Assembly: GCA_003553085.1 (NCBI GenBank) | Contig: PUPH01000066.1 | Span: 568 to 64,567, forward strand | Direction: 5' to 3' | From: Thermoplasmata archaeon | Lineage (GTDB): Archaea; Thermoplasmatota; Thermoplasmata; Halarchaeoplasmatales; Halarchaeoplasmataceae | Length of the DNA: 64,000 nt | In this document: positions 9,282-64,000 of the stretch, one piece after another | Numbering within the stretch: position 1 is the stretch's first letter | How the letters are laid out: every line of letters starts with the position of its first letter | Notes under the pieces: generated by a model | What the model saw: only the letters and a program-made list of their open reading frames with translations | Database searches by the model: none | Told to the model about the DNA's origin: nothing | Position numbers and translations under genes: made by a program

Positions 9282-9417
9282 GCCGAGGTAGCTAAGTCTG
9301 GACTACGGCGCCGGCCTTGAGAGCCGCTATATCGGGGACAGTCCTAACGGGCTGTTCCCGGCCCAAGCAAGCCGGTGGCGGACCCCCGCCACGGGAGTTC
9401 GAATCTCCCCCTCGGCG
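9282..9417 (+). tRNA. tRNA-Ser (anticodon UGA), class II, with a roughly 48-nt intron at the canonical 37/38 position
   Basis: Folded by hand. Acceptor GCCGAGG/CCTCGGC plus discriminator G. Anticodon stem CCGGC(9311-9315)/GCCGG(9371-9375), loop CTTGAG..A, anticodon TGA at 9318-9320. Long variable arm GGCGG-ACCC-CCGCC. T arm GGGAG-TTCGAAT-CTCCC. Intron about 9322-9369, with an internal hairpin. CCA is not encoded. Confidence 0.85.
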
Positions 9418-18257: not shown

Positions 18258-18354
18258 GTCGGGGTAGCTCAGCCTGGTGGAGCGCTAGACTCATAGGGAA
18301 ATCAAGCGTTCCTGGGACATCTAGAGGCCGCGGGTTCAAACCCCGCCCCCGACA
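18258..18354 (+). tRNA. tRNA with anticodon CAU (elongator Met or Ile2) and a roughly 23-nt intron at 37/38
   Basis: Folded by hand. Acceptor GTCGGGG/CCCCGAC plus A. D stem GCTC/GAGC. Anticodon stem CTAGA(18285-18289)/TCTAG(18320-18324), loop CTCATA..A, with CAT at 18292-18294. 5-nt variable loop. T arm GCGGG-TTCAAAC-CCCGC. Intron about 18296-18318. G1-C72 argues against an initiator. Confidence 0.85.
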
Positions 18355-23000: not shown

Positions 23001-25957
23001 CCATCATGCCTGAGGACATCACATTCGATACAGAATTAGCTGAGGTGGATGAACAACTCACCATCTTTGCCGAAGTTTATAACCATGGTGGAGAAGATGT
23101 CACGATCACCGTACGATTTTTCGAAGGTGAGGAAGTCATCGGAGAGGATGTGATAACCGTTGAAGCGGAAGGAGAAAGTGCTACAGCATCTGTATCTTGG
23201 ACTCCGACCCGTAGAGGAAATCACGAGATAAGGGTGGTTGTGGATCCCGACGAAGAGATATACGAAGTCGATCGACGCTTCAATGAGGCGAGCGTTATCA
23301 AACCCATCTTCAGTGATGGACTCAGACATGATCTGATCGTGGATGGTAATGATGTTGAAACCCGAGGTTCTTATCGATCTTCAGGGTACGTTGTCGTTAT
23401 GGACGGCGGAGAGCTGACCATAAGAGGTGAAGGAGATAGAGCATCTTTCGAGATGACACAGAGCAGGGACAACCAGTATAGCATAATCGTGAGAGACCAG
23501 GGTAGATTGGTCATCGAGAACACCATGATCTTTTCGGACTACGATATATCTATAATCGTATCTGATTCAGCCACACTCGAGGTCATCGACGATGGGATAC
23601 TCTATGATATGGTCAAATTAGAGGCCGTGGACGACTGCTTGGTCAATATCGAAGATTCGAGTATAAGGGGACCTGTAGAGATATCTTCAGGAACATTTAG
23701 AACTCATGAGAGTCAATTCACATCCACAGATACATTCATCAGCCCCAGTGAGATATACGGTGTAAATACTACATTCGAGAGCAACCTCGACGATTTCCAT
23801 GATACAACAGGTGCATTGACCGCTGTACAAACGGATTCTATCACCATGACCGGAGATTCCGAGATCGATATATTGATATGGTTGAGAGCACATACGGTCA
23901 GTCAAGGTAATATCCCTCTGGGAGGAACCCGTGTAGAGATAAACAGTTTGAACATTGACTATAGTGCTTCAGGTATAACGGATGATCAAGGAAGCGTATA
24001 TCTACCCGCATTGACCAATATACTGACACCGGGGGCAGATGACTACGTCGGCAATTATGAGATCGAGGCTGAGTACGTCTGGGGTGAGATGATTTATTCT
24101 TTCGGTCCCATCACAGAACCATTCCCTGGATACACCGACGGACAATACCTGATAGAGAGAACCCTCAGATTTGAAGACCTTATGATCCCTGATCTAGCTA
24201 TCACAGATGGTGATGTTCATACCGATGTGGACGACGTGGCCTCTGGAGAACAGGTCCGGATAACTGTAGAGGTACACAATCTTGGTATGGCCGATGCAGA
24301 GGATGTAAACGTAGAATTCTATCTGATAGGACCAGAAGATGAAGAACTTATAGACATATACACTATCGACGGCATCCAGAGTATGGAATCTGAGACCGCT
24401 GAGATATACTGGACCGCTTCTTTGAGCGATACAGGTCTCAGAGAAGAAGTTAGACAGATCCGTGTTTGGGTGAACCCCGATGTTTCACCATTGCCAGATC
24501 CACAGTTGGATAACAACGAAGCATTCACCCAGGTAACGGTCAGAGCCGTTCCCATGCCTGAGTTCTATTCAGACGATGTGATCATCACTGTGGATGGCAG
24601 TCCCATCGAAAACAACACGGTCCTCGAAAGAGATGACCTGGATATCAGCGTTCATGTTGTGAACAACGGCGGCACTATAATGAGAAATGCCACAATAGAG
24701 TTCTTCTACAACGGAGAAACTATCGGACAGAACATAACGGATATGCCGGTCGATGAAGTATTGAATATCACAGAACCGTGGACGGCTACCGTAACAGGTG
24801 AAGTGACCATCGAGGTCGTGCTATATGCATCCGATGGAAACCTAACTGTGTCCAGGAACATCATAATCGAAGAGATGACACCTATGTTCATAGGCATATC
24901 GATACCACTTGATGACATGGATATGGGAGAACCTTTTACCGTACTGGGAGATCTGGTCAGATCCGTCGACGAAAAACCTATCAGCGGTATGACGGTTAGA
25001 GCTCAACTCATCGACGAGGACGGAACCACTGTAGATGAAGGGACTGCGGTTACAGGTGACGGCGGCTCATTCGTTATCGATCTGGTCACTCCTGATAGAG
25101 GCGGTGATTTCTACGTCAGATTGACTCCTGACCATCCCCGAGGAGAAGAACTAGATACCCAGCAATTTTCAGTCATCGATCCGGCCGAAGGCATACCACT
25201 CTGGATGTTCGCATTGATCATAGTGGTTGTAGTCGCCGGTGGTTTGGTGGGCATGATCCTCTACCTCAAGTACAAAGGAGAAGGTGAGTGGGTCGAGTGC
25301 GGTGAGTGTGGTTCGACCATACCTGCAGAATCCACCAGCTGTCCGAAGTGTAACACTGAATTCGAGATGGGTACTGTGAAATGCAGTGAATGCGGCGAAT
25401 GGATCTCGGGAGATGCTGCTGAATGTCCACATTGTGGAGTAGAGTTCATCACTACCGGTAAAGACGTCGAAGATTACTCTGAATCCATGAAACGGCAGTA
25501 CGAGGCTTATGTGGAGAAGAACAAGAGATGGGCTAGAGAAGAACTAGGTGACAAGTTCACCGAGGAGGAGTTCATGGAATGGTGGTCAGAGCAGCCGAGT
25601 TACCTGACCTTCGACGACTGGCTAGAGCAGGAAGAGGCCAGGCGTAAGAAAGGAGGCGTCGAGTGTCCGCAGTGCGATGCACTGAACAGTGTTGACGACG
25701 CCCTCTGTCAGAAGTGTGGTACAACGTTGATACAATTCACACAGAAGACCGAGGAGGAAGAAGAGGAGGAAGAAGAGATGCCACTCTTAGGCCTGGACGA
25801 CATCGAGAAGTTAGGTGATGAAGAGGAACCTGAAGAAGAGATGGAAGAGGACGAAGAGCCTGAGAGGAAGGTCGTTAAGAAGGTGAAGAAACGACCGAAG
25901 AGAGTGGCTAAAAGGGTGAAAAAGAAGGTCGTGAAAAAGCCGGATGAAGAAGAGTGA
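20069..25957 (+). CDS. Giant (1962 aa) acidic surface protein: N-terminal signal/anchor, parallel beta-helix-like regions, multiple CARDB-like Ig modules, one C-proximal TM helix and a cytoplasmic tail with zinc ribbons and charged tracts
   Basis: N-terminus KVFGLAIVILILIGTL, with SD-like GGTGAGG upstream. Beta-helix-like repeats (SLTINDATLSL..AELTLNNATITT, and GGELTIRG..GRLVIENTMI..ATLEVIDD). CARDB-like modules (e.g. DLTISEEDIHFQVDG..TIEVTVHNIGTLEAEDVLIHYY; DLAITDGDVH..VRITVEVHNLGMADAEDVNVEFY). TM helix IPLWMFALIIVVVVAGGLVGMILYL at about 25192-25270. Tail with CGECG..CPKC, CSECG..CPHCG, CPQC..CQKCG, E9 and KVVKKVKKRPKRVAKRVKKKVVKK. Confidence 0.8.
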   Translation: MSSRNISINKVFGLAIVILILIGTLTPAYSVIGGETNEDSSSRSDELFSPTIIGNTWYIDGHETLEGSPDRDEFPLDANIQINDSASLTINDATLSLLIDGFHPWRITLMDNAELTLNNATITTTMRGEGLLRPFLKTNVSAFAGSSINMYDNSSFQFPGWVYLENSELNMVNSRFEPLEHVPEFDYTWGESERSIGIEDNNDCPRLIASDGSYIHLEDSEINNQYRNNLIGHMEWEPDSIDGDYHINEDGHIVIEAGGNIEVDVWEYMNPRFPGPDRYPYFNPFNRISALYIEMDYRTGENYTANDPVEYETPEETKEAFNLERRDSFGTDGAEIFETSISTFGNDGDRFIKNLTVNLFNHDDPDDNQTDIFIRSFRMFSAFDNDIHIWNSEMVAINSVIDVDFNPSDVDPRPGFTQATDNTNWMANADQDHRVIRLLEGSTFRGYGFQPTDLEPQPDGDPIFVTDGDSGVEIYRWATVTPKDLTGTPISGTNITFSKGALTYNNPDENPEALDYLERNFGVIYDSTNGHYVTDHRGQTTMFLRSDNITHPEDWPNSEYTGEYTLQAIYEDPERGVDLNETARSISFSAFPNFDEEANHMFFDLGFDMEIPHPDLTISEEDIHFQVDGNPVTYVTNETEVTIEVTVHNIGTLEAEDVLIHYYIEDEGAAPAELLPPDVIKIGESTIDYIDEGDSVQTNITWTPELPGLYEIFVYVDPYEDIIELDDTNNVASNTLWVGEKANLYAEGVFFLPSDEVVNGTHVEIYSEIVNYGGTDVHDVEVAFYLGDEYGDLIGTSVIDIPGNGTRVMTEPIHWEYPGPGNYDITVVADPDGLVDRVHTDMNKFTNDISIYTEPDFEIDYLNISSDEVYDGEELTIYTMVSNVGEWTSSQTDVRFYVDHGTDHEEFIGSVTVPSLQGGESTEELSMDWTANMVESELSEVRTITAVVNEDYDEELEVNRDNNYADVDVEIMNPAELSIMPEDITFDTELAEVDEQLTIFAEVYNHGGEDVTITVRFFEGEEVIGEDVITVEAEGESATASVSWTPTRRGNHEIRVVVDPDEEIYEVDRRFNEASVIKPIFSDGLRHDLIVDGNDVETRGSYRSSGYVVVMDGGELTIRGEGDRASFEMTQSRDNQYSIIVRDQGRLVIENTMIFSDYDISIIVSDSATLEVIDDGILYDMVKLEAVDDCLVNIEDSSIRGPVEISSGTFRTHESQFTSTDTFISPSEIYGVNTTFESNLDDFHDTTGALTAVQTDSITMTGDSEIDILIWLRAHTVSQGNIPLGGTRVEINSLNIDYSASGITDDQGSVYLPALTNILTPGADDYVGNYEIEAEYVWGEMIYSFGPITEPFPGYTDGQYLIERTLRFEDLMIPDLAITDGDVHTDVDDVASGEQVRITVEVHNLGMADAEDVNVEFYLIGPEDEELIDIYTIDGIQSMESETAEIYWTASLSDTGLREEVRQIRVWVNPDVSPLPDPQLDNNEAFTQVTVRAVPMPEFYSDDVIITVDGSPIENNTVLERDDLDISVHVVNNGGTIMRNATIEFFYNGETIGQNITDMPVDEVLNITEPWTATVTGEVTIEVVLYASDGNLTVSRNIIIEEMTPMFIGISIPLDDMDMGEPFTVLGDLVRSVDEKPISGMTVRAQLIDEDGTTVDEGTAVTGDGGSFVIDLVTPDRGGDFYVRLTPDHPRGEELDTQQFSVIDPAEGIPLWMFALIIVVVVAGGLVGMILYLKYKGEGEWVECGECGSTIPAESTSCPKCNTEFEMGTVKCSECGEWISGDAAECPHCGVEFITTGKDVEDYSESMKRQYEAYVEKNKRWAREELGDKFTEEEFMEWWSEQPSYLTFDDWLEQEEARRKKGGVECPQCDALNSVDDALCQKCGTTLIQFTQKTEEEEEEEEEMPLLGLDDIEKLGDEEEPEEEMEEDEEPERKVVKKVKKRPKRVAKRVKKKVVKKPDEEE

Positions 25958-25971
25958 AAAACTCTAACTTG

Positions 25972-25999
25972 AAACCCCTTCCCTTTTTTTACATTTTTC
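25972..25999 (+). terminator. Oligo-T archaeal terminator candidate with a conserved C-rich prefix
   Basis: AAACCCCTTCCCTTTTTTTACATTTTTC lies 15 nt after the stop of the 1962-aa gene. The same AAACCCCTTC..T7..AC motif follows two other plus-strand genes (38541, 48590). Confidence 0.4.
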
Positions 26000-26265
26000 T
26001 ACCATCGATCTGAGGTTATACAATTCTTGAGATGCCTCAAGTGGTGTTTACTTTTAAATACAATCGATAAGAACCATGTAGGTACTTGATAGATGAGTAT
26101 TATCAAGGTAATGATGAACGGTTTTTTGATGATGAAAAACACCTGTCAATATGAGTAAGCTGAAGTGTTATCATAAAATAAGATATCGAACAAGGAAAAA
26201 TTGAGTCAATAAACTATGTTTGAGCTATGTTATTCAAGATTATGGGAAGTACAGGACCCAAAAAG

Positions 26266-26612
26266 AATAGATCCTACCACATCGCAGAGCCGTGGGCTTC
26301 CCTACCGACAGGATGAAAACATCCTGTCCCTTTGGTCACCTAAGGTTTACGACCGACGGGAGAAGGCAGTGCCAAGCTACCATTACTCATATCCATGAGG
26401 ATTCTGAGTCATCTCGTTTTACGTCGGCAAATGGTTCATGCTTACTTTTGTTAAAGCGGACACCTACCGCTAATTTGAATCAAGTCGCCGAGAGGTCATC
26501 TCGACTAACAGATATACATACGGTGGTGAGGATATCTAACTCACTATCGGTATTCACCACCACAGTAGGACTGCGGGGTTCTCTACCACAGAACAGTATA
26601 GATCCTACCGGT
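26266..26612 (-). ncRNA. Candidate structured non-coding RNA of unknown class (weak resemblance to the Alu-domain twin hairpins of SRP RNA). Boundaries approximate
   Basis: It sits inside a 750-bp gene-free interval. Perfect or near-perfect stems: GACAGGATG/CATCCTGTC (26308-26329), GGTGGTGA/TCACCACC (26523-26562), CCGACG(26354-26359)/CGTCGG(26423-26428), GCGG/CCGC (26457-26471), CTCAT/ATGAG (26387-26400). On the minus strand the segment ends in UUCUUUUU. Near the minus-strand 5' end there are GUUCU-GUGGUA-GAGAAC and CCGCAG-UCCUA-CUGUGG hairpins. The strand call rests only on the T-run. Confidence 0.3.
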
Positions 26613-26708
26613 TAAAAGATATGTGTTCAGTATAGAATACATGTGACTGTGTACATAGCTTAGATATACCTAAACGGATACTTGCTCAAGATTCTATATG
26701 ATGATCGA

Positions 26709-27533
26709 TCATACGGATAGCTTGATATCGAACCTTGCCCGGGTCACCGATAAATTAGATACACTATTTAATTCGATGTTGAGTTGATTACCATCTATTT
26801 CTAAATCCCCAACATCAGTATTCTCTTCGAACCATCTCTGCCATGCAGCAGGATAGGCGGTCTCTAAACTGATGGTGACGTTTTCTGGGTTGGTAAAGTC
26901 TCTTTCCGTGGTACTGAAGAGTTCCGTAGTGATACCCACAACACCACTACCTCCTGCAGATATCCTCTGAGAGTTGCTGATATCGATCATGGTCAATGAG
27001 ACAGAATACTCTCCTCCGTCCTCCTCGATCCTTATGTGGGGTGGTGCACGGACAACGGCTCCTTGCGGTTGCTCCAGAATTATCGCACCGTGCTCATAAA
27101 CAACTGTCTGCTCCTCAAAGTACCTGTTCTGTACATTCAAAGATATGTTACCCTGACCCTGGAAGGTCCTCGGCTGCCCATCCTCGGTCAATTCTAGAGT
27201 CATCTCGCCCCATCTTGGGGTGACCCTCATCGCCCCCTGTGTTGCACTGGCGAACATCGGTACGCCTTCAGCACCGAGACGAGCTGTGGAGAACATCGGG
27301 TAATCCATCCTATTGTTCATGATCAATGTGTCTATATTACCCTTCATTGAAGAGAACTGAGTCATCACTTCTTCCATGTGATATGCCTCGTTATCTTCCA
27401 TCCATACGGGTACGTACTGCTGAGTGATCAGAGATAGTAAACTAAGGAATACCAGTAAGGCCATTATGGTCCCCACGGTGGTGGCGACACCCTCGTCGGA
27501 ATCCCTCAAAGCTCTTTTAGATAATCGTTTCAT
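26709..27533 (-). CDS. Class-III-signal-peptide (archaeal type IV pilin-like) protein, 274 aa
   Basis: N-terminus MKRLSKRALRDSDEGVATTVGTIMALLVFLSLLSLITQQYV: a charged stretch, Gly, then a long hydrophobic helix, as in archaeal prepilins. It is the last gene of the secretion-ATPase operon, with a 4-nt overlap. Confidence 0.55.
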   Translation of the reverse strand: MKRLSKRALRDSDEGVATTVGTIMALLVFLSLLSLITQQYVPVWMEDNEAYHMEEVMTQFSSMKGNIDTLIMNNRMDYPMFSTARLGAEGVPMFASATQGAMRVTPRWGEMTLELTEDGQPRTFQGQGNISLNVQNRYFEEQTVVYEHGAIILEQPQGAVVRAPPHIRIEEDGGEYSVSLTMIDISNSQRISAGGSGVVGITTELFSTTERDFTNPENVTISLETAYPAAWQRWFEENTDVGDLEIDGNQLNIELNSVSNLSVTRARFDIKLSV

Positions 27534-29170
27534 CTTCTACCCTCCTCCTCTAGGTACTCACGTACCATCTCCATAACAGAGGCTTTGTCCCTGTAATAAG
27601 AAGAAGTTATATGTGCGAAGTCGCGATAGTTGGTGATACCTTTATTGTCCATGTACTCGAGCACCATCTTGCGTCTTTTCACTTCTTTCTCCATCTCACG
27701 TGAAGTCCAGCTCTTCTGTTGAGCCACCCTGCTGTAAACGTAGCTGTGACCGCTGTAATTGAACGAATCATCGGCAGGATTCCATGTGTAAGCTTTGTTC
27801 GTTATCAACTCATTGGTATCGGGATCTACGCCCACAACTTCTGTGATGGCCTTTATCCTTCTGACCATCTTTGTACCGACCTTAACCTTACCTTGCAGCA
27901 GTACGATGTCCAAGGCACCAACGAGAGCTCTTGGTAGGTTGATAGGATCGTTTTCCATCCTATTCACCATGGTCTGAACGTCATCGGCGTGGAAGGTTGT
28001 GTAAGCACTCTTACCCGTGGCCATGGCCTGGAAAACAACGTAGGCTTCGGCACCTCTTACCTCCCCCACCATGAGATACTGTGGACGCTGACGGAGTGCA
28101 GCCTGAAGCAGTTCGAACATGTCTATCTCCCCGGCCTTTTTACCGGATTCATCAGTCTCTCCGAAACCGCTCCGGGTCAGTAGTGGTACCCAATTATCGT
28201 GGGGTAGATTCAACTCTCGTGTATCCTCTATACTCACGATCTTCATCTGTGGTGGTATGAACAGCAGTAGAGCGTTCAGTGTTGTGGTCTTACCAGAAGC
28301 AGTACCTCCACATATCAGCATGGACTGACCGGTCTCTATGGCGATCCACGCATAGGCCATCATCTCTGGGTTGAACGTCTTGAAATGGATCAGATTTATG
28401 GGTGTATAAGGCTCTTCCTCAAAACGCCTTATGGTGAACGATGAACCCTTTTGTGTAACGTGAGTTCCCAGGGTTTCTTGAAGCCTGGATCCGTCGGGCA
28501 TGGTTGCATCGAGCATTGGGTCTGCCACAGAGATGTGTTTACCACTACGTTGGGCTATCCATATAACGAAGTTGTCGAGTTCGGCTTCATCCTCAAACAC
28601 CACATTAGATTTCATGGAACCGTACTTTCTGTGGAAAACGAATATCGGTATCCCCACACCATCGCACGAGATATCCTCCGGATTCACGTCGTTCATGATC
28701 ACGTGTATAGGTCCAAAACCGAGGAAATCCCTTTTGATGTAATAGTGAATCCGTTTTTCAGATACAGGTCGCAGTCTTATATCTAAGTCTTTAAAGATCT
28801 CCCGCACCTTATCGGCCAGATATTTCTGTCTTTCCTCTTTCTCTTCGATCTCAACGAGTTCAAGATCATCGATGAGCCTATCCTTTACCGTTTCGAGCAG
28901 TGCTTCCTCATCCTCATCCAACTCGGGTTCGATGACCTCGTAAATGTATTCGTTGGTCTTGTTGTCGTACAGTATCCTTACATAAGAATAGGGTTCCTCT
29001 ACACTGGTAGTCTCTATCTCCTTGACACTCTCCTCTCTGATCTTGGGTATGGGTGTGATCTCGTTGGATTTGGATCCGTCTTTCTGAGATGGCATGTAGA
29101 TCTTCTTGGGCTTGCCGTTCACCGTTATGTCCTTAAACTTATCCTTGATTTTATCTCCTATCGCTGCCAT
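27530..29170 (-). CDS. Type II/IV secretion-family ATPase (FlaI/PilB/TadA-like), copy 2
   Basis: YSYVRILYDNKTNEYIYEVIEPEL N-domain, Walker A CGGTASGKTTTLNA, Asp box SIEDTRELNL, Walker B/His box YLMVGEVRGAEA..TGKSAYTTFHADD. Confidence 0.85.
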   Translation of the reverse strand: MAAIGDKIKDKFKDITVNGKPKKIYMPSQKDGSKSNEITPIPKIREESVKEIETTSVEEPYSYVRILYDNKTNEYIYEVIEPELDEDEEALLETVKDRLIDDLELVEIEEKEERQKYLADKVREIFKDLDIRLRPVSEKRIHYYIKRDFLGFGPIHVIMNDVNPEDISCDGVGIPIFVFHRKYGSMKSNVVFEDEAELDNFVIWIAQRSGKHISVADPMLDATMPDGSRLQETLGTHVTQKGSSFTIRRFEEEPYTPINLIHFKTFNPEMMAYAWIAIETGQSMLICGGTASGKTTTLNALLLFIPPQMKIVSIEDTRELNLPHDNWVPLLTRSGFGETDESGKKAGEIDMFELLQAALRQRPQYLMVGEVRGAEAYVVFQAMATGKSAYTTFHADDVQTMVNRMENDPINLPRALVGALDIVLLQGKVKVGTKMVRRIKAITEVVGVDPDTNELITNKAYTWNPADDSFNYSGHSYVYSRVAQQKSWTSREMEKEVKRRKMVLEYMDNKGITNYRDFAHITSSYYRDKASVMEMVREYLEEEGRR

Positions 29171-29176
29171 GTTTTT

Positions 29177-30100
29177 TCACCCCATCAATTCTAATCCTCC
29201 GAACAGTATCCGCAGCGCAACAAACCCCATCAATGTCAGGATGAAGCTGTGCTGCATACCGCTAGCTATCTTTCCATTTTGCAGTACCCCCGCTACTATA
29301 CCGTCTCCGACCCCGTGGGCGAACACTGCGAGTACGAATATGAATTCGATAACAGGTATGGCTTCTACGTCTATCTGAGCAGCATCCGCTCCGCCGGTAT
29401 CGACATCTACATCGCCCGGATCCATGGCTTCTCCCGCTTCTTCCATCTGTGCGAGGAACTGTGTGCTCAAGATGATTATAACCACGATGAAGACAGCGAA
29501 CGATATATAGATGACCGCAAGATAAGATGTCATTGCGATCTTTTGTTCGTCCTCAGAAAGATGTATCTGTTTAGTATCTTGGGACACCATGCTCAGTACG
29601 TCAGCAACGTTACCGCCGGCATCATTTGCCTTTATTATTATCGCAACGACCCTGTTGACAAGCGGTGTATCCACACGGCCTGCAAAGAGGGTAAGAGCTT
29701 CAGATGCCGGGACTCCCCAGTATATCTGAGCGGCCATCTTCTTTATCTCAGGGGTCAAACGACCGTACCTTCCAGAAGCTGATACAACGATTGCGTCTGC
29801 AAGTGTCATACCGAACCTACCGGCTTCGGCCACGTCACGGAGGAAATCGGGGAGGCGTCTTTCGATCTTCTCGATCTCACTCTGTTTATAATTTATGTAA
29901 AAGCCTGCTGGGCCGAAGAAACCCAACGCTGCTATCATAGCCCAATCTATGGGATCTAACGGAATGGGAGCTGCATCCAGTATGTTCAGCACCATTATGA
30001 ACGCCGCCACTGCAGCTATGACTGAAGAAACTATCAGTACTTCTTTTGTTTTGCCGACCTTCAGCATCTTTTCAAATTGACTTTCTTGTTCCTGCGGCAT
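29177..30100 (-). CDS. Single-domain T2SS-F/TadC/FlaJ-like platform membrane protein (307 aa)
   Basis: LPDFLRDVAEAGRFGMTLADAIVV..LTLFAGRVDTPLVNRVVAIIIKANDAGGNVADVL followed by TM helices. One T2SSF repeat only. Confidence 0.75.
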   Translation of the reverse strand: MPQEQESQFEKMLKVGKTKEVLIVSSVIAAVAAFIMVLNILDAAPIPLDPIDWAMIAALGFFGPAGFYINYKQSEIEKIERRLPDFLRDVAEAGRFGMTLADAIVVSASGRYGRLTPEIKKMAAQIYWGVPASEALTLFAGRVDTPLVNRVVAIIIKANDAGGNVADVLSMVSQDTKQIHLSEDEQKIAMTSYLAVIYISFAVFIVVIIILSTQFLAQMEEAGEAMDPGDVDVDTGGADAAQIDVEAIPVIEFIFVLAVFAHGVGDGIVAGVLQNGKIASGMQHSFILTLMGFVALRILFGGLELMG

Positions 30101-30107
30101 TTTATCA

Positions 30108-31133
30108 CTAATCCTGGTTTATCAACCAAATTATAAATATGAATCCAACCTGGGCGCCCGGTATCATGATACCAACTACGCCATATAAAAGGGGTATGGG
30201 GTCGCCGGCACCCATGCCCGCCATTATGGCCATTATGGCCATGATAACTACTAAGAAGAGGGGAAAAGCAACTACGACAGTGACGAATGACTCCGCCATC
30301 ATGCCGAGGGTCTCCATCTTCTGCTGTACCACCAATTTACGACTGTCTTGGTATTCTTTCAATTTTGATGTGAAGTAAGGTTTTAACTTACCACCTGAAC
30401 TGGAGGTTGTGATCACACCTTGTATAAAATCTCTGAATGCCTCTGAAGGAGTCCTGTCTGCAGCCCTCTGCAGAGCGTTCAGTATATCTATACCCAGCAG
30501 CTCGGTATCCCGGGTGATCCATTCCGCCTCCTCCCTAACCTCACCATACAGAGGTTGTTTTGATAACTCTTTGAATATCAGATCCACGTTCACGTCGGCT
30601 GAAGACATGGCAGCGATGAAACTCATCGCATCAGGTAATTTCTTATCGATCTTCTTACCCCTAGAACTAGCAGTCATACCTGGTGCTGCTTTCAAACCGA
30701 AATAAGTGGCGATAGGTGTTACAACTGCCACTAGCATACCTGATCCATACAGCAACCAACCCATCCCTAACATGGCATCGAGTACAGGCCCAATGAATAT
30801 GGCGGCGACGACACCGAAGACAGCCGCTATCAAGGTACTCATCCACACGTAGGCAAGATATTCCTCAGATCTGATCTTCATGTGCGCTGCCAGCAGGTCT
30901 TTTTCCAGATTCTCATCCCTAATACCCTTCTGTTTGACTATTGGTCCCATTAACCGCCAACACAGTTGCTTGTAAGGTGATAAATTCAGATATTCTGGTA
31001 CAGCGGATTTCGGTAATCGAACGATATGTGGACCATAGGTCTCAAGTCTATCGCTGGGTTTCGCACGTTTTGTGGATAAGAATTTGTCCTTTTTAAAACG
31101 CAATTTTTCGAAGCTATCTTGTATCTCCACCAT
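30108..31133 (-). CDS. Single-domain T2SS-F/TadB/FlaJ-like platform membrane protein (341 aa)
   Basis: LPDAMSFIAAMSSADVNVDLIFKEL..RDFIQGVITTSSSGGKLKPYF..METLGMMAESFVTVVVAFPLFLVVI. One T2SSF repeat plus flanking TM helices. Its start abuts the stop of the upstream ATPase. Confidence 0.75.
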   Translation of the reverse strand: MVEIQDSFEKLRFKKDKFLSTKRAKPSDRLETYGPHIVRLPKSAVPEYLNLSPYKQLCWRLMGPIVKQKGIRDENLEKDLLAAHMKIRSEEYLAYVWMSTLIAAVFGVVAAIFIGPVLDAMLGMGWLLYGSGMLVAVVTPIATYFGLKAAPGMTASSRGKKIDKKLPDAMSFIAAMSSADVNVDLIFKELSKQPLYGEVREEAEWITRDTELLGIDILNALQRAADRTPSEAFRDFIQGVITTSSSGGKLKPYFTSKLKEYQDSRKLVVQQKMETLGMMAESFVTVVVAFPLFLVVIMAIMAIMAGMGAGDPIPLLYGVVGIMIPGAQVGFIFIIWLINQD

Positions 31134-32837
31134 CTAGATCTCACCCCTTATCCTTGCCAACGTCTCTTCCGGTTCTTTGTAATACGATGTGACTATCTTT
31201 GAGATCTCCTTATAATCGATGTCCCCCTGTTCCAGTAGATACTCCACGATCTCAACACGGTTGTTGAATTCGTTGTTCATTTCCTCCTGAGTCATATTTT
31301 TCATTTCGTTTATGATATCTTGATTATAACTGTGTCCTTTGTAAATGAAGCTATCGGATTTTCGATCCCAATCGAATACGGTGTTAGTCACGAGTTCGTC
31401 GCTTTCAGGCTCAAAACCGACGAGTTCTGTTATCTCCTGGATACGTCGTACCTCTTCATCGTCCACCCGGGCAAAGGTTTGTATTATCACGAATGACAGA
31501 GCCGTGAGCAGAACTCGAGGACAGTTGATGGGAGGGTTCTCCAATCTGTGCACCATGGATTCCACGGAATCGGCGTGCATGGTGCTGTACGTCGTATGGC
31601 CTGTAGCCATAGCCTGGAACATGGTATTGGCCTCCTTGCCTCGGACCTCACCAACGATTATGTAATCGGGCCTCTGCCTCAGAGCGTTCCTTACAAGATC
31701 GTACATGGTCACTTCTCCCGCTGCTTTACCCGTTGAACTCTTCTTCTCTCCGCTACCGGTCCGGGTAGTGCTGGGTATCCAGTTTTCGTGGGGAAGATTG
31801 ATCTCTCTGGTATCTTCCAGCGAAACTATCTTTTGACCTGGAGGTATGAATAGTGTAGCGGCATTCAAAGTTGCGGTTTTACCACAAGCTGTGCCTCCGG
31901 CGATTATCATGGACATACCGTTTTCCACCATGAGCCACATATATGCGATCATCTCGGGTGAAGCGGTGTTATACTGTATCAGCTTCACCGGGGTGAACGG
32001 TTCTTTTTTGAAACGTCTGATGGTGATGGACGAACCTCGTGTAGACACCTCGGTCGCATACGTTGCCTGAACACGGTGACCCTCCCGGGTAGTGCCGTCC
32101 AATATGGGGTTGGATACGGATACCTGTTTTCCACATCTTTGGCCAAGTTGGATTATGAACGAATTGAGTATTTTTTCGTCTTCGAATCTAACGTCGGTCT
32201 TTATGGACTCGTATTTAGCATGATATATGAACAAAGGTATGTCGACACCATCGCAAGAGATATCTTCCACCATATCGTCGCTCATGATCACATCGACATG
32301 ACCGTATCTTACGTAATCTCTCAAAATATAATATATCAGCCGCTTCCTTGATTTTTTCTCTATGTTAAGGCCCCGGCTTCTGATGTAACTCTCCACACAC
32401 TCTTCGATGTACTCCTCCTTGTCTTTACGTGCCATGTGTTCCCAATCATAAGAAAGGGTACGATCGAGTGTGTCTTTTATGAGTTCTAGCCACTCTTCCT
32501 CTTTAGATGTCAAGGTGGGTTCTATGGCCTGATATATGTACTCCTTTGATTCGTCGTTATAGATCACCCTCGCATAACTGAACGGAGGGCGTATCTCATA
32601 TATGTCTTCCACCCTTATCGATTCGCTATCTATCTCTGGAAGCTGGGTATATTCAGAGATCCATCCACCTTCCCCTGCCCGTACCCTATCTCTGTTCTCT
32701 ATGTCACTCTTGGAGAGCATCACCCGTCGAGGTTTTTTTGAAAATCTCAAAGGAGATTTGATCATATTTGTAATATTTGTAAGAGCATTACCTTTTTTAT
32801 CCGGAGTGGATTTGCCTGTTTCGGCCATATAAATCAC
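31134..32837 (-). CDS. Type II/IV secretion-family ATPase (FlaI/PilB/TadA-like), copy 1
   Basis: FSYARVIYNDESKEYIYQAIEPTL, Walker A AGGTACGKTATLNA, SLEDTREINL, YIIVGEVRGKEA..TGHTTYSTMHADS. A paralogue of the 27530..29170 product. Confidence 0.85.
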   Translation of the reverse strand: MIYMAETGKSTPDKKGNALTNITNMIKSPLRFSKKPRRVMLSKSDIENRDRVRAGEGGWISEYTQLPEIDSESIRVEDIYEIRPPFSYARVIYNDESKEYIYQAIEPTLTSKEEEWLELIKDTLDRTLSYDWEHMARKDKEEYIEECVESYIRSRGLNIEKKSRKRLIYYILRDYVRYGHVDVIMSDDMVEDISCDGVDIPLFIYHAKYESIKTDVRFEDEKILNSFIIQLGQRCGKQVSVSNPILDGTTREGHRVQATYATEVSTRGSSITIRRFKKEPFTPVKLIQYNTASPEMIAYMWLMVENGMSMIIAGGTACGKTATLNAATLFIPPGQKIVSLEDTREINLPHENWIPSTTRTGSGEKKSSTGKAAGEVTMYDLVRNALRQRPDYIIVGEVRGKEANTMFQAMATGHTTYSTMHADSVESMVHRLENPPINCPRVLLTALSFVIIQTFARVDDEEVRRIQEITELVGFEPESDELVTNTVFDWDRKSDSFIYKGHSYNQDIINEMKNMTQEEMNNEFNNRVEIVEYLLEQGDIDYKEISKIVTSYYKEPEETLARIRGEI

Positions 32838-32939
32838 TTGTTTGTATACATTTACTGACGATGTTCTAGCATAACTTGCAGAGATTTACTCATCCGACTG
32901 CCTTTTGATGATGTATCAAATGCTATTTATAAGTGTTGG

Positions 32940-33500
32940 TTATTTTCCCTTTATCCAAGGCGCTATTATCTTTTCACTGTCTGCAGGCCCCCTTGCATAG
33001 AGTATATCTCCGCCGCTTATCGTTGTACCTTCGTCGGGGCCGTAGATCCAATCGTATCCTCTTCTGATAGCGATCACCCATACTCCGGTTTCGGTAGCCA
33101 GTTTTATTTCTCCGAGTGTTTTTCCATGAAGAAGGGAACCGTTCTCGACGACATGCTTCTGGATGACCACGTCTGAATCCTCTAGACTTTTCTTCACCAC
33201 AGGATGGAGTTCGATATCCCGGAGTACGACATCTGCGATATCCAAAGCGGCATCAGCTATGCGCTCTATGGAATCGGAGATCTTTATCATGATCAAGCTG
33301 CGATCGAAATTTTTTGGTTCTTTACTCTTGCCCAGGGCGGAACGTATTATCGCTTCGTGCAGCCTATCCACACGATCTTCCAGTTCGATGACCTCTTTAG
33401 CAATCACTTTGTTTTGGTATATCAAGGATGAGTAAGCCAGGTCAAGCATGAGTTCGGAGGTGTTTTTCATCTCCAGCAGTCTTCTGTCGTCTTCGTTCAA
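32940..33500 (-). CDS. PhoU-like helical domain + TrkA-C (RCK_C) domain protein
   Basis: N-terminal helical PhoU-like repeat (ELMLDLAYSSLIYQNKVIAKEVIELEDRVDRLHEAI..ISDSIERIADAALDIADV). C-terminal RCK_C pattern (LHGKTLGEIKLATETGVWVIAIRRGYDWIYGPDEGTTISGGDILYARG). Confidence 0.65.
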   Translation of the reverse strand: MNEDDRRLLEMKNTSELMLDLAYSSLIYQNKVIAKEVIELEDRVDRLHEAIIRSALGKSKEPKNFDRSLIMIKISDSIERIADAALDIADVVLRDIELHPVVKKSLEDSDVVIQKHVVENGSLLHGKTLGEIKLATETGVWVIAIRRGYDWIYGPDEGTTISGGDILYARGPADSEKIIAPWIKGK

Positions 33501-34141
33501 TGTACCACCTCCGACCAGGGTATCTCGGCATGGGCCACCTCACGTACCTCCCTATAACCGGATTCCACACCTCGTACGATCATCAGGTCGTTGGGGAAAA
33601 GTTTTGTGTTGGCATCAGGTCCGAATATCCATCGGTTCTGCCTTCTCACGGCTATCAGTCTGACTCCGGTGTAAGACTCCATCATCAACTGGCCTATGGT
33701 TTTTCCAACCATGTCGGATCCGGGGTAGATAGCGATGGTATGTATCTTCTCATCGGCTTCGGATAAGATGTGAGGGAGTATGGCTCTCAGCTCTAGATCC
33801 ATATCCAGCAATTTGACCATGTCCTCGGCCGCATCAGATATCTTTTCGGTGGCCGAAGCTACCTGAAGGATACCGGTCATCTGTTCTGCTGCCTCCATGT
33901 TCCTGGCACCGAGCATACACTTCAATCGGATCTGGTACATCATCTTGTCCATCTCGGATTCGAGATGCCTGACTTCTTCAGCCAACTCGTCGTTTTCGAA
34001 CGCCGCCGCTGCGTAGGCTAAATCGGTTATCAGTTCCGTGGTATCCTTCATCAAAGTGAGGAGTTCCCTCACCGAAGTCTGTTCGTATGGGATCTCCCCA
34101 TGCTCTTCCTTAAGCTCCTTTTCCAATCTTGCTCTTCTCAA
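33497..34141 (-). CDS. PhoU-like helical domain + TrkA-C (RCK_C) domain protein (paralogue)
   Basis: Same layout as 32940..33500 (TELITDLAYAAAAFENDELAEEVRHLESEMDKM..; MVGKTIGQLMMESYTGVRLIAVRRQNRWIFGPDANTKLFPNDLMIVRG). 4-nt overlaps with both neighbours. Confidence 0.65.
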   Translation of the reverse strand: MRRARLEKELKEEHGEIPYEQTSVRELLTLMKDTTELITDLAYAAAAFENDELAEEVRHLESEMDKMMYQIRLKCMLGARNMEAAEQMTGILQVASATEKISDAAEDMVKLLDMDLELRAILPHILSEADEKIHTIAIYPGSDMVGKTIGQLMMESYTGVRLIAVRRQNRWIFGPDANTKLFPNDLMIVRGVESGYREVREVAHAEIPWSEVVH

Positions 34142-34689
34142 ATTATCACCAACCAGATCATGAACACCAATGCGACGATGCCTATGAAGTCGCAGGCGGT
34201 GGTCACGATGGGTATCACTACGTTGTCCGGGTCCATGTTCTTATTATATGAATATAAAGTAGTAAAGACAGTAATAAATGTGATGGATACGGTGGTTATC
34301 ACACCGGCCCCGAGGACTATCAATATCAGCTGAATGAATGTTAAACCCAAGGGTATAGCAAAGGAGGAGAGGGAAACTCCGATTGCTAGACCTCCAAAAA
34401 CCATCCCACCCATCAACAGGGTCATCAACAGGTTTTCCTTCACCTCTTCATCTAAATAATCCGCCTCGATGTAACCGGTATGTAATCCGGAGGATAATCG
34501 AGCGCCTAACACCGCACCAAGATTTCCTCCGACACCGTTCAAGATGGGTACCAAAAAAAGCAGGATGGGAAACAATATCAGTTGTTCTTCTATGGATTCT
34601 AACACATGCCCTCCTGCGATCCCGATAAAAGCCATCAATGCTAAGATCCCTGCGCTTTCTTTGAATATGTTCTTCCAATGGTATTTCAT
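34138..34689 (-). CDS. MgtE-type divalent-cation transporter, membrane domain only (183 aa)
   Basis: LVPILNGVGGNLGAVLGARLSSGLHTG and DPDNVVIPIVTTACDFIGI are the conserved MgtE TM-domain motifs. No N-terminal or CBS cytosolic domains. Confidence 0.7.
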   Translation of the reverse strand: MKYHWKNIFKESAGILALMAFIGIAGGHVLESIEEQLILFPILLFLVPILNGVGGNLGAVLGARLSSGLHTGYIEADYLDEEVKENLLMTLLMGGMVFGGLAIGVSLSSFAIPLGLTFIQLILIVLGAGVITTVSITFITVFTTLYSYNKNMDPDNVVIPIVTTACDFIGIVALVFMIWLVII

Positions 34690-35249
34690 AGGAATAAACC
34701 TCCAAAGAATGTTGCGAAACCGAACATTATGATCAAGGTTGCTATATCACCAACTGTCGTGAGTACGGGACCACTCACGTTGTCGGGATCTATATTGAAC
34801 TTTATCGAGAGCAATATGATCAGGAAAGTCACCAACAACAGTACTACAGCTGAGGTAACACCGGTCGAAACGGATATCAATGCAATGACACCAAGAACCC
34901 GCCAGGTGACTGAAAATGGTAAGAAAAAGCTTGTGATCAACAGGAAGATAGGAAATAGTAACGAAACAAAGAAACTCAACGACATCGTGCCTTTAAAGTT
35001 TTCAAGCGTGATGTCAGACGTCAGACCCTCCTCGAGAAGGCCAAGGTGCATAGCGGAACCTAGACGTGAACCGAGGGCTGAACATATATTCCCCCTCATG
35101 TCTATAATGGCGGGAACGATGATGATCAAACCCGGTATGAGTTCGAATATCTCAGTCATACTACCGAGAAAGTAACCTGCCAAGCTTCCGCCTAGAACAC
35201 AAAGAAACAAGACTGGAAGCGTCTCCACCAGCACCTTTCTACGGTCCAT
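34686..35249 (-). CDS. MgtE-type divalent-cation transporter, membrane domain only (187 aa, paralogue)
   Basis: IVPAIIDMRGNICSALGSRLGSAMHLG and DPDNVSGPVLTTVGDIATL. First gene of the four-gene minus-strand operon. Confidence 0.7.
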   Translation of the reverse strand: MDRRKVLVETLPVLFLCVLGGSLAGYFLGSMTEIFELIPGLIIIVPAIIDMRGNICSALGSRLGSAMHLGLLEEGLTSDITLENFKGTMSLSFFVSLLFPIFLLITSFFLPFSVTWRVLGVIALISVSTGVTSAVVLLLVTFLIILLSIKFNIDPDNVSGPVLTTVGDIATLIIMFGFATFFGGLFL

Positions 35250-35660: not shown

Positions 35661-38534
35661 ATGAAACCAAAAACAGCAGGCAAATTGGCTACCGGCCTGA
35701 TGGTGCTTTTACTAGTGCTGTCAGGTGCGATGGTACTGCAATGGAATGCGCGAGCAGAAGAACGCCACGTAGGAACAGTCGAGGGTATCGTACAGGCTGA
35801 AGATGGAAGCCTAATTCCAGAAGGATTCAATATCAAACTTGAGGATCTCAACGAGGAAATAACCATAGAATCACAAACTCACAAAGGTGGATACTTCCAG
35901 TTCTCAGACCTTGATGTAGGTCATTATCAAATATCCGTACCTTCTCAGACCCATGATAGAGCATATCATGGAACTGGATCCGGTGTTCTAGAAGTAACGA
36001 GAGATGCATCGGTTTATGAGGAGCTCACGGTCGTTTCTAGGGTAAGAGAGCACACAGTTAACGGTACTGTGTTGGATGAACTAGGAGAGGTCGTGGAAGA
36101 TGCACAGATCCATCTGTTTGATGGTGATTATCATTTCCAGACCGGGATCGATAACGTAACTTCCGGTGAATTCGAGTTCAAGGCTTACAACGGAACGTTC
36201 GACCTCAGAGTCGAGGCAGAAGATCATGCACCATATATGGTCCATGATCTTGTGATCAACCAAACTACGACCATAGATTTGGTATTGAAGGATACCCCGC
36301 ATGTCAGTGGACACTTGTGGTCCACAGATGGATATGGTATCACTTCTCAGATCGAAGTCACGCTTATCGATCAACATACATCCGATATGCTACGGGCCAC
36401 TATGCCCGAAGGTAACCCATGGTTCACTATCGGTGCATCTACCGGAGAATATACATTGATAGTTTCAGCGGATGGTTACAAACCATATATAAACGAAAAT
36501 ATCGAAATAGTCGATGAATACAGCAATGTTCCCCTGGGTAGAAGGTTCGTAGATAGGTCCGAAACCGAGAAGATAACAACAGACATAACCTTCGAGGATT
36601 GGAACTCCCTCACGGTGACCCGTGAAAGGACACTGGAGATCAACAGTCGAATGATGGGATTGGATCACTGGTATCTGGGTAACCTACGTATGCAGATAGA
36701 CATGGTGTTCGGAAACGGAGACGGAGTCGTTACTGAATCAGATGTTGAAGAATTCAGAGATTGGTTGGAGTACAGAGAAGCAAACCATCTGACGACCCAG
36801 AGGATGCTTTGGTTGGAAGACTCGGTTTATGAATTGGAAGAAAATTATTCCTTCGATTCTGATGATCTCGATGCTCTTGTCGGTGAGGTTACCGATCTAG
36901 ACGTGGACACCATGACCATAACAAGTGAGAAGGAGTACGCCGCAGAAGACATGGAATTCCCCGAGGATGGATCACTTTTGATCAACATGGGATTGAAGAA
37001 TGATGTCGTTGTAGGTAATTACCGTGACTATTCATACCAGCTAAACATCCCTGAAGGGTTCGAAAGGGTTCCAACGGCACAGCAAGAGATCCCTGATGAT
37101 GTAACAATCGAAGGTCACACACAGATGTCTATCGACACACCCGAAGGCGTCGGACGCTCATATCTGACACTTGATGTCCATATGTCAGAACAGGGAGAAG
37201 CTTCTGTTATACTGGTTGAAGATGTCAACGTTTACGAAATGGATGACAAATATTACGCCGTCAGGCAGGATACAGAAGTGACCATCAGAGCGGAACTCAC
37301 CGATCCGGTGGGCAGGGAAGAGGACGCAAACTTCACATGGCTCATCGATGGTACAGAGATCGGCAAATACGGTAGTGAGATAGTCCATACATTCACGGCT
37401 GAAGATGAAGTGAACCTCACAGTCAGTGTTAAACAGGCAGGTGGATTGATCGTAACATCCTATGCGAACGTGTTGATAGATGGAACAGGACCACAAGGAG
37501 ATATCGAAGTCGATGAAACTGTGATAGATGAAAGGGAAGAGATCATGTTCTCAGCATACAACTTCACCGACGAAAGTGGCGTCAGAGAATTCACCTGGAA
37601 CTTCAGTGACGGAACCGACTATGTAACAGGCACCAACGTGACGCATTCATTCGAACTGTACGGTGTTTACGAAGTAACCGTGAACGCTACCGATGTTGTT
37701 GGTAACTGGAACCTAGAAACAATAGAGATAGAGGTAAGGGACGTTACACCTCCGGTCGCTCGGTTCGTGGCCACATATGACGACGAAGAGGTGGAAAGTG
37801 ACAATATAACCGCTCCAGTGCGCCTAGAACGGGGACAGGAGTTCTCTTTGGACGCAAGCATCTCTTATGACCCTGAAGGATTCGACGGCGAAGAATCGGA
37901 TATAAGCGTTGTATGGTGGTTCAGCAGAGTCGATTACCGCAGCGAAGAGTTCGAGATCTTGAACTACTCCTTCACCGAACTAGGTACGTACGACATAACT
38001 CTTAACGTCACAGACGAAGCAGGCAATTACGACAACATCACGAGGACCCTTGAGATCGTTCCTGGACCAAGCCCGAACATAGAGATCGTTGATGTATCAC
38101 TTGCAGAAGACAGAGTCAGAGCAGGTGATACGGTACAGGTAGTAGCCAACGTGACCAACTACGGAACCGCCAATGCCACCAGCGTTAGTGTTCTGTTCCG
38201 TGTCGACGGCGAGCCGGTAACTATCACCCCAGGATTCTACTATGTAGACAACGAAGAGGCACCGGATAACACGATACCCATGGATGAGTACCGGTTGATA
38301 AAGTTCGATTGGGAAGCAGATGATTCTGGTGAACATACGTTGACGGTGAACGTAACCGATGCAGAGGAACCGGCGGCTTGGCAATACGATAACGAGATGG
38401 ATCTTACTGTGAACGTCGATCCACCTCAATGGAGGACGATGATAGGCTACATACTAGTACCAGTCATCATAATCGGTGTTGCGGTAGGTCTATACCTGAA
38501 CAAAGATAAAGTTCAGGGAATGCTCAAGAAGTAA
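35661..38534 (+). CDS. 957-aa acidic surface protein: signal/anchor, carboxypeptidase-regulatory-like, PKD-like and CARDB-like Ig modules, C-terminal TM anchor
   Basis: SD AGGAGG 9 nt upstream. KLATGLMVLLLVLSGAMVL. GTVEGIVQAEDGSLIPEGFNIKLEDL (CarboxypepD_reg-like). PKD-like FTWNFSDGTDYVTGTNVTHSFELYGVYEVTVNATDVVGN and YSFTELGTYDITLNVTDEAGN. CARDB-like VRAGDTVQVVANVTNYGTANATSVSVLFRVDG. C-terminal IGYILVPVIIIGVAVGLYL. Confidence 0.8.
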   Translation: MKPKTAGKLATGLMVLLLVLSGAMVLQWNARAEERHVGTVEGIVQAEDGSLIPEGFNIKLEDLNEEITIESQTHKGGYFQFSDLDVGHYQISVPSQTHDRAYHGTGSGVLEVTRDASVYEELTVVSRVREHTVNGTVLDELGEVVEDAQIHLFDGDYHFQTGIDNVTSGEFEFKAYNGTFDLRVEAEDHAPYMVHDLVINQTTTIDLVLKDTPHVSGHLWSTDGYGITSQIEVTLIDQHTSDMLRATMPEGNPWFTIGASTGEYTLIVSADGYKPYINENIEIVDEYSNVPLGRRFVDRSETEKITTDITFEDWNSLTVTRERTLEINSRMMGLDHWYLGNLRMQIDMVFGNGDGVVTESDVEEFRDWLEYREANHLTTQRMLWLEDSVYELEENYSFDSDDLDALVGEVTDLDVDTMTITSEKEYAAEDMEFPEDGSLLINMGLKNDVVVGNYRDYSYQLNIPEGFERVPTAQQEIPDDVTIEGHTQMSIDTPEGVGRSYLTLDVHMSEQGEASVILVEDVNVYEMDDKYYAVRQDTEVTIRAELTDPVGREEDANFTWLIDGTEIGKYGSEIVHTFTAEDEVNLTVSVKQAGGLIVTSYANVLIDGTGPQGDIEVDETVIDEREEIMFSAYNFTDESGVREFTWNFSDGTDYVTGTNVTHSFELYGVYEVTVNATDVVGNWNLETIEIEVRDVTPPVARFVATYDDEEVESDNITAPVRLERGQEFSLDASISYDPEGFDGEESDISVVWWFSRVDYRSEEFEILNYSFTELGTYDITLNVTDEAGNYDNITRTLEIVPGPSPNIEIVDVSLAEDRVRAGDTVQVVANVTNYGTANATSVSVLFRVDGEPVTITPGFYYVDNEEAPDNTIPMDEYRLIKFDWEADDSGEHTLTVNVTDAEEPAAWQYDNEMDLTVNVDPPQWRTMIGYILVPVIIIGVAVGLYLNKDKVQGMLKK

Positions 38535-63606: not shown

Positions 63607-63761
63607 GTGAGCATTTAGTGGGTAAAATTTTCTCCATACTTCGATCTGATAGATATCTGTAAAAATATATCCATACGCAGACCTAGTACCAAATGATCGA
63701 AAGATGTGAAAAAGAAAAAGATTTCCACACGCAGACCTGTCTGATGACCAATCCGAAATGT

Positions 63762-64000
63762 AAACTGCAATCCGGACGCTTAGTAACCGTGGGCTGAATA
63801 CGTCGCCGAAGCTTCGTACTTACACCCCGGTTCTATCAAACCCGTCTTCCACGGGAGTCCTCAGGTACCTCGTTTCAGGAAAAGTTTCAGGCTTAGATGC
63901 TTTCAGCCTTTATCTTCATACAGCGTGGCTACCCAGCGTGTGCCCTACCGGACAACTGGTAAACTAGTGGCTGCGAAACCCTGTTCCTCTCGTACTAAGG
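63762..64000 (-). rRNA. 23S rRNA, 3'-terminal about 240 nt (the gene continues right of the window). The 3' boundary is approximate
   Basis: The reverse complement contains the sarcin-ricin loop CCTTAGTACGAGAGGAACAGGG (window end), GCTGAAAGCATCTAAGC (63891-63907), and a 3' region alignable by eye to the E. coli 23S end (GAAGACGGGTTTGATAGAACCGGGGTGTAAG..ACGGTTACTAAGCGTCCGG). Confidence 0.85.

Follow-up and report, generated by a model that had tools for sequence, protein, structure and literature searches.

The archaeal pili and archaella have long been held to run on one multifunctional ATPase. The locus described here carries two ATPase genes in a single operon and thus raises the question of which machine is encoded and what a second ATPase would do in it. 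It is localized at positions 26709-32837 of a stretch of 64,000 nucleotides (nt) from a Thermoplasmata archaeon (GenBank assembly GCA_003553085.1, contig PUPH01000066.1); this whole stretch, as analyzed, is called the window. The answer reached is that the operon probably belongs to an archaeal type IV pilus serving adhesion, of the "CdiP" type known from Cuniculiplasma, and encodes the core of this machine at the cytoplasmic membrane, i.e., two ATPases, a platform protein split into two genes and a pilin-like protein.

The five genes are all on the minus strand. In order, they encode ATPase-1 (A1; 31134-32837, 567 amino acids (aa) from a GTG codon), the N-half of the platform protein (F1; 30108-31133, 341 aa), its C-half (F2; 29177-30100, 307 aa), ATPase-2 (A2; 27530-29170, 546 aa) and a DUF7289 pilin-like protein (P5; 26709-27533, 274 aa). 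The gaps calculated from these coordinates are 0, 7 and 6 nt in the order A1-F1-F2-A2, and A2 and P5 overlap by 4 nt. The initial annotation of this DNA had described five tight minus-strand genes forming one operon; its coordinates, sizes and junctions are all recovered here. An alternative start of A1, the ATG at 32828, leads to a protein of 564 aa. Since the orthologues have 563-566 aa, this ATG is favoured and is probably, from the sequence, the true start.

Such a layout has been published before. In C. divulgatum, the ATPases CSP5_0712 and CSP5_0715 flank the TadC genes CSP5_0713-14, and this cluster was likened to the arrangement found in Aciduliprofundum (Golyshina et al. 2016, PMC5155288). 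Makarova et al. 2016 (PMC4858521) described an A. boonei locus with two different ATPases, together with many euryarchaeal loci having two tadC genes and a pilin-like signature protein of 250-550 aa, arCOG02911. The pilus of C. divulgatum has since been solved and its machinery named CdiPE1, CdiPE2, CdiPFa and CdiPFb (ISME J, 2025, PMC12448462). In that paper the two ATPases are called unique and enigmatic and the operon is considered as an outlier; the cells are heavily piliated, they adhere and show no twitching, and the pilins are encoded about 500 kb from the machinery operon. The novelty implied by the initial annotation is thus lost, the gene order being already catalogued in these three papers.

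The comparison of the window operon with that of C. divulgatum leads to the following observations: (i) the order ATPase, platform N-half, platform C-half, ATPase is the same, and so is the split point of the platform; (ii) in both cases no major pilin gene is found beside the machinery, and no CdiPB-like pilin gene was detected in the 64 kb by a signal-motif scan of all open reading frames (ORFs) of at least 60 aa; (iii) the identity between the two systems is 33-45% only; (iv) the CdiP host is an acidophile, whereas the window host is a Thermoplasmata archaeon of a haloalkaliphilic lineage. The succession T2SSE-T2SSF-T2SSF-T2SSE, with overlapping junctions, is also found on all the contigs bearing close CdiPFa homologues, among them one of Cuniculiplasma sp. 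SKW4 and others of Thermoplasmatales metagenome-assembled genomes (MAGs). The likeness to the A. boonei locus (PMC4858521) is by description only, i.e., two distinct ATPases; unlike the window operon, that locus was reported with one pilA-like pilin gene.

F1 and F2 contain one Pfam T2SSF domain each (E 1.6e-12 and 1.3e-17, respectively). On the NCBIfam ArlJ/FlaJ model, F1 aligns with positions 4-243 of 555 and F2 with positions 265-540 of 555. Because F1 thus covers the N-half and F2 the C-half, the platform is truly one protein cut in two. The concatenated CdiPFa,b sequence was rebuilt from the supplement of PMC12448462. F1 aligns with its residues 39-313 (35% identity, E 3e-40) and F2 with its residues 354-608 (33% identity, E 1e-39), and it follows that the window platform and the CdiPFa/CdiPFb pair are split at the same point. 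Of 81 loci, 78 have F1 at this place in the gene order. According to Denise et al. 2019, pairs of single-domain platform proteins (TadB/TadC, Epd) result from gene fission, TadC being the N-half and TadB the C-half. Judged by these alignments, F1 is the homologue of CdiPFa and F2 that of CdiPFb; in this mapping F1 corresponds to TadC and F2 to TadB. The proposal that the platform protein is encoded by two genes is therefore retained, since they are the two halves of one protein of the FlaJ/PilC type. For the same reason the idea of "two fused ancestral modules" is abandoned, F1 and F2 not being two complete copies. CdiPFa relatives of 535-538 aa were considered as possible unsplit platforms and rejected, as a further T2SSF gene and a further ATPase are present in the locus.

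The two ATPases are both recognized by the Pfam model T2SSE (E 6.5e-36 for A1 and 7.8e-31 for A2), and A2 also by PilB3_C (E 2.8e-9). The four catalytic motifs are found in each: Walker A (GGTACGKT in A1, GGTASGKT in A2), the Asp box (LEDTRE and IEDTRE, respectively), Walker B (VGEVRG in both) and the His box (TMHAD and TFHAD, respectively). The Glu of Walker B aligns with E336 of Sulfolobus acidocaldarius FlaI, i.e., the residue mutated in PDB 4IHQ. These motifs are conserved at 90% or more in 79 ATPase-1 and 62 ATPase-2 orthologues. The view that neither ATPase is degenerate is thus confirmed, and A1 and A2 are apparently both catalytically competent, full-length ATPases of the FlaI/afGspE type. 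A1 and A2 are 47% identical over 509 aa with 2 gaps, and share both the N- and C-terminal domains. Paralogue-specific fixed substitutions, near the His box and elsewhere, separate the orthologues of A1 from those of A2.

The best match of A2 in the PDB is afGspE (2OAP) with 426 bits, to be compared with 293 bits for FlaI and 148 bits for CpaF. The TadA model TIGR03819 gives 146 and 144 bits for the two ATPases, the cut-off being 373. The closeness to afGspE rather than to CpaF, and TadA scores below the cut-off, show both ATPases to be of the archaeal kind. The locus had been called "Tad-like". This remains pertinent for the split platform, which bacterial Tad (TadA/CpaF, TadB, TadC) and Methanococcus Epd also have as two genes with a single T2SSF domain each, but not for the ATPases. 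The likeness to Tad is one of architecture only. Tad and Epd have a single ATPase, and the window lacks the TadZ/FlaH-like second NTPase, the secretin and the short Flp-type pilins of Tad. The euryarchaeal "Clade 2" pili (Haloferax PilB3/PilC3-type, Archaeoglobus afGspE) share several features with the window operon: afGspE is the closest ATPase of solved structure, PilB3_C is detected, two tadC genes and an arCOG02911 protein are often present, and the major pilins are often encoded in trans. Unlike it, these loci have one ATPase per platform.

The age of the ATPase pair was examined on a neighbor-joining tree, i.e., a distance method, containing A1, A2, 119 further representatives, afGspE and FlaI. 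The A1 clade and the A2 clade each have a bootstrap value of 100/100 (neighbor-joining, 20 loci), while the sisterhood of A1 and A2 has a bootstrap of only 12%. The duplication is thus old, because the two lineages form separate clades with full support. When compared to ATPases of the Cuniculiplasma type, A1 is closer to the first (409 bits) than to the second (350-363 bits), and A2 is closer to the second (439-444 bits) than to the first (389-397 bits). The matches being reciprocal, each window ATPase is thus the positional orthologue of its Cuniculiplasma counterpart, and the duplication therefore predates the split of the Thermoplasmatales from the lineage of the window. On this sequence evidence, the duplication appears independent of that of PilB and PilT and would have occurred within the archaeal FlaI/afGspE-like family.

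Among the relatives of these ATPases, several proteins of 1000-1300 aa are single ATPases split by an insertion of about 450-550 aa (P0288, P0290, P0335, P0346, P0351, P0368, P0375 and P0380). The insertions are mostly at or just past the Walker A region (query positions about 288-317) and look like intein candidates.

The conservation of the operon was studied on 80 loci, kept from at least 576 matching stretches found by one scan of species-representative genomes, and the gene order was read by tblastn of the five window proteins against the kept loci. The closest homologues belong to Thermoplasmata MAGs (Candidatus Saliniplasma, Candidatus Haladaptatiplasma, Candidatus Natronoplasma and bins named "Thermoplasmata archaeon"). 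The order A1-F1-F2-A2 and the common strand are the same in each of the 80 loci, as far as the length of the contig lets them be read, and these loci include Methanomassiliicoccales and two complete chromosomes. The DUF7289 gene is present beside the core, and on the same strand, in all of them. It is downstream of A2 in the halophilic clade of the window (L001-L020, L027) and upstream of A1 in the other, Methanomassiliicoccales-type loci (L028-L080).

The distance matrices of the five proteins are correlated (r = 0.86-0.95), the highest value being that of A1-A2 (0.95, partial 0.68), and therefore the gene set is inherited as a unit. The partial correlations of the mirror-tree analysis give no specific signal between an ATPase and its adjacent platform half (A1-F1 0.22, A2-F2 0.18); those of the non-adjacent pairs are 0.18 for A2-F1 and −0.17 for A1-F2. 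The evolutionary rates of A1 and A2 are slow and alike (mean distance 0.47 and 0.43, respectively), those of the platform halves are 0.64-0.65, and P5 is the fastest-evolving of the five (1.23). A1 and A2 are an ancient, non-redundant pair, always inherited together. What is modestly new here is that (i) the two-ATPase module is phylum-wide and not a Cuniculiplasma curiosity; (ii) DUF7289 is its constant companion outside the Thermoplasmatales; (iii) a giant membrane protein, described below, is often encoded next to it in convergent orientation.

P5 is assigned to Pfam DUF7289 (E 3.2e-14, 53.5 bits vs. a cut-off of 27), and its homologues are named "DUF7289 family protein" by NCBI. Its N-terminal motif, [D/E]-G|V-A-[S/T]-T-V-G-T-I-M-A-L-L-V-F-L, is near-invariant in 69 orthologues, and the head of the protein is 30-65% identical among orthologues. 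An AlphaFold2 model calculated from an alignment of 67 sequences has a mean predicted local distance difference test score (pLDDT) of 93.4. It consists of a helix at residues 13-73 (about 60 residues) followed by an all-beta head, so the predicted fold follows the "lollipop" plan of pilins. The single-sequence model (pLDDT 40) is unusable. A Foldseek search of the model against the PDB gave no match at E ≤ 0.001, and a hidden Markov model of the P5 family gave against PDB sequences only matches at chance level (E ≥ 0.08, ribosomal protein eL15). P5 had been said to carry a class-III signal peptide. The motif and the predicted fold agree with a pilin-like protein, but the signal is class-III-like only, as position −2 is usually acidic where K or R is usual. 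From the sequence, processing by a prepilin peptidase is plausible. P5 is probably a pilin of the minor or priming kind, or else a pseudopilin associated with the platform, and DUF7289 is likely a candidate equivalent of the arCOG02911 signature protein.

Several genes expected around such a machinery are absent from the window. The Pfam search, which covered the large ORFs except 61990-63120, found no prepilin peptidase (Peptidase_A24-type) and, with the signal-motif scan, no KaiC/FlaH, FlaF/G, FlaC/D/E, FlaX or archaellin gene. The signal-motif scan of the ORFs of at least 60 aa found no PilA-type or small pilin and no other class-III-like ORF in the 64 kb. These results agree with the initial annotation, where no prepilin peptidase, FlaH/KaiC-like or small pilin gene had been seen. 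It must be noticed that the gene of the prepilin peptidase often has its place outside such loci, and that its lack in the window therefore gives no information on the genome.

The way in which such an operon would work can be described as follows. A single membrane platform with pseudo-symmetry would be built from F1 and F2; A1 and A2 would form hexamers and dock under it; with ATP, they would then pull pilin subunits out of the membrane and add them to the filament. P5 may serve as a minor or priming pilin, or as a pseudopilin bound to the platform. The major pilins and the prepilin peptidase would be encoded elsewhere and act in trans, as in C. divulgatum and Haloferax. As to the division of labour between the ATPases, the reading tentatively put first, although its odds are somewhat short of even, is that A1 and A2 are one cooperating motor on a shared platform, either as a hetero-oligomer (mixed ring) or by alternating. 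A physical cooperation is weakly favoured by the partial correlation of 0.68 between A1 and A2 and by the existence of a fused double ATPase. This protein of 1154 aa (P0247, L087:264-3728), encoded on one metagenomic contig of 5 kb, contains two complete FlaI-like ATPase modules (residues 158-633 and 687-1148), and a T2SSF gene comes next on the contig. Either an ATPase pair has fused naturally here, or the protein is an artefact of gene calling.

A number of points weigh against this interpretation. As for the pilus itself, the link between operon and CdiP pilus in C. divulgatum is itself one of homology and expression, not genetics (PMC12448462). The window operon has a translationally coupled DUF7289 gene, while none is found beside Cuniculiplasma-type operons, and the cleavage of P5 by a prepilin peptidase is uncertain because of the acidic residue at −2. 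As for the cooperation of the ATPases, the co-evolution signal between A1 and A2 may only reflect shared rate patterns of the family, and the mirror-tree shows no specific pairing of A1 with F1 or of A2 with F2. The fused double ATPase, finally, is a single case on a 5-kb contig, with about 32% identity, and is possibly a gene-calling artefact.

Instead of one cooperating motor, each ATPase might form its own homohexamer and serve its own pilin set or its own step on a platform used by both; priming with DUF7289 or with minor pilins, for instance, would be the task of one, and elongation with the major pilin that of the other. This specialisation is in keeping with a DUF7289 gene that goes with the operon and with major pilin genes that lie far from it. 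It is nevertheless rather unlikely: every locus has a single split platform per ATPase pair, P5 shows in the mirror-tree no differential linkage to A1 or A2, and its gene adjoins A2 in one clade and A1 in the others.

A little less probable still is an extension/retraction pair of the PilB/PilT kind, in which pilus growth would be driven by one ATPase and pilus disassembly by the other. Bacterial type IVa systems (PilB/PilT, with or without PilU) do have more than one hexameric ATPase on one machine, and two conserved, apparently active ATPases in one operon, differing by the paralogue-specific conserved substitutions mentioned above, are in keeping with such a pair. On the other hand, PilT is N-terminally truncated in its architecture, whereas the window paralogues are full-length, collinear over 509 aa and have the same N- and C-terminal domains, so that neither of them resembles PilT; the PilT-family models give about 42 bits on the window ATPases for a cut-off of 319. 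The idea was raised in PMC12448462, but C. divulgatum, which has the orthologous operon, adheres without twitching according to the same paper. Moreover, the Aap pili of S. acidocaldarius retract with a single ATPase (PMC11178785, PMC10418518).

Two further possibilities involve a neighbour of the operon. A giant membrane protein of 1962 aa is encoded at 20069-25957 on the plus strand, and contains Pfam CARDB (five copies), DZR and Zn_ribbon domains. A hydropathy scan gives a signal peptide and one transmembrane helix (1702-1737), after which about 226 aa form a cytoplasmic tail whose six CxxC motifs correspond to zinc ribbons. Homologues are convergent to the operon in 33 of the 42 loci with enough downstream DNA, in both DUF7289 arrangements, and all 38 giant-protein homologues have a transmembrane helix at the C-terminal end, and their tails contain 5-8 CxxC motifs. 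No giant CARDB/zinc-ribbon homologue was found beside the Cuniculiplasma-type operons examined, which is a further difference between the window and CdiP. The giant protein is a candidate partner of the pilus system. The statement that the operon is flanked by very large surface proteins holds, with this protein on one side and, on the other, a PKD/CARDB protein (Pfam) of 957 aa at 35661-38534.

The most far-reaching idea built on this neighbour is that of an undescribed six-gene adhesion module of the Thermoplasmatota (motor, DUF7289 and giant CARDB protein), in which the triple zinc-ribbon tail would dock on the motor. In such a module, the role of the second ATPase would be to link the giant protein to the pilus machine, or else A1 and A2 would be an obligate hetero-oligomer. 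This is considered as improbable, more so than an extension/retraction pair. If true, such a module, with a coupling ATPase or an obligate hetero-oligomer, would have a motor of a kind that no type IV filament system is known to have.

Less probable again, and clearly so, is that the operon does not encode a pilus motor at all, but a filament-derived device serving the giant protein (display, anchoring, or a bindosome-like pseudopilus), DUF7289 being the sole pilin-like subunit. The frequent convergence of the giant gene, its invariant helix and zinc-ribbon tail, and the lack of a major pilin nearby in the window are compatible with such a device. Nevertheless, Cuniculiplasma-type operons have no giant neighbour and yet the cells are heavily piliated; the bindosome ATPase model gives only 185-204 bits for a cut-off of 1000; the convergent neighbours are not co-transcribed; and a Pilin_N gene lies 2 kb upstream of the operon in another Thermoplasmatales locus.

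This last gene (PF07790, 177 aa) is found about 2 kb upstream of a two-ATPase operon in one Thermoplasmatales MAG (L084:2773-3306), and its product is a candidate cognate pilin of this type of machinery.

Finally, a reduced archaellum, i.e., a rotary swimming motor, can practically be set aside: the top NCBIfam models are indeed FlaI for both ATPases and ArlJ/FlaJ for both platform halves, and some databases label the homologues "flagellar protein FlaI" or "FlaJ", but the scores are below the cut-off for FlaI (410.6 bits for A1 and 440.1 for A2 vs. 550) and far below it for the ArlJ models (48-75 bits on F1 and F2 vs. 400-570), afGspE is much closer than FlaI (see above), no FlaH/KaiC, FlaF/G, FlaC/D/E or archaellin gene is present in the operon or in the scanned window, and C. 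divulgatum is non-motile and without archaellum genes (PMC5155288).

The immediate surroundings of the operon are as follows. The intergenic region 5' of A1 (32838-32939, minus strand, 102 nt) extends to the stop codon of the upstream gene (32940-32942). It contains a TATA-like element, TTATAAAT, at 32925-32932, and read from the sequence it is the probable place of the operon promoter. Directly upstream, at 32940-35249 on the minus strand, are two PhoU/TrkA-C genes and two half-size MgtE genes (Pfam). This cluster looks like a split Mg2+-transporter-like system and is syntenic in the closest 16 loci only. Its genes had been considered as possible pilins and were rejected on their Pfam assignment; they are not part of the system. 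On the other side, the non-coding gap of 750 bp to the giant gene (25958-26708) was also set aside: it has no Rfam match at gathering score and is unconserved in related loci. A sub-threshold match to Rfam sot0042 is found at 26298-26414 on the minus strand (31 bits vs. a gathering score of 88).

In its gene content the window is ordinary chromosome and encodes aminoacyl-tRNA synthetases, eRF1, ribosomal proteins and the small subunit of PolD. An archaeal 23S rRNA gene, of which the 3' end is present (63760-64000, minus strand), runs off the edge of the window. A protein of 2223 aa (55225-61896, minus strand) has an N-terminal oligosaccharyltransferase domain of the STT3/AglB type and a run of CarboxypepD_reg and Ig-like domains; directly downstream, and overlapping the 3' end of its gene, is that of a CARDB protein of 256 aa (54464-55234, minus strand). 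At 9662-13190, a cyanophycin-synthetase-like gene (901 aa; Cyanophycin_syn, ATP-grasp and Mur ligase domains) is convergent, with a slight overlap, with a Peptidase_S51 gene of the cyanophycinase family. Such a pair is probably unusual in an archaeon. Two over-long tRNA matches on the plus strand, at 9282-9417 (136 nt) and 18258-18354 (97 nt), probably contain introns; ARAGORN finds the second only, without naming its anticodon.

The window adds no new kind of system, and only DUF7289, as a partner, and the giant CARDB/zinc-ribbon protein, as a conserved neighbour, are leads beyond the published description. Its meaning lies elsewhere: the two-ATPase arrangement is an ancient unit across the Thermoplasmatota, including halophilic lineages and the Methanomassiliicoccales, and not the oddity of one acidophile. 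The purpose of two ATPases thus becomes a general question, for which many natural variants are at hand to test it.

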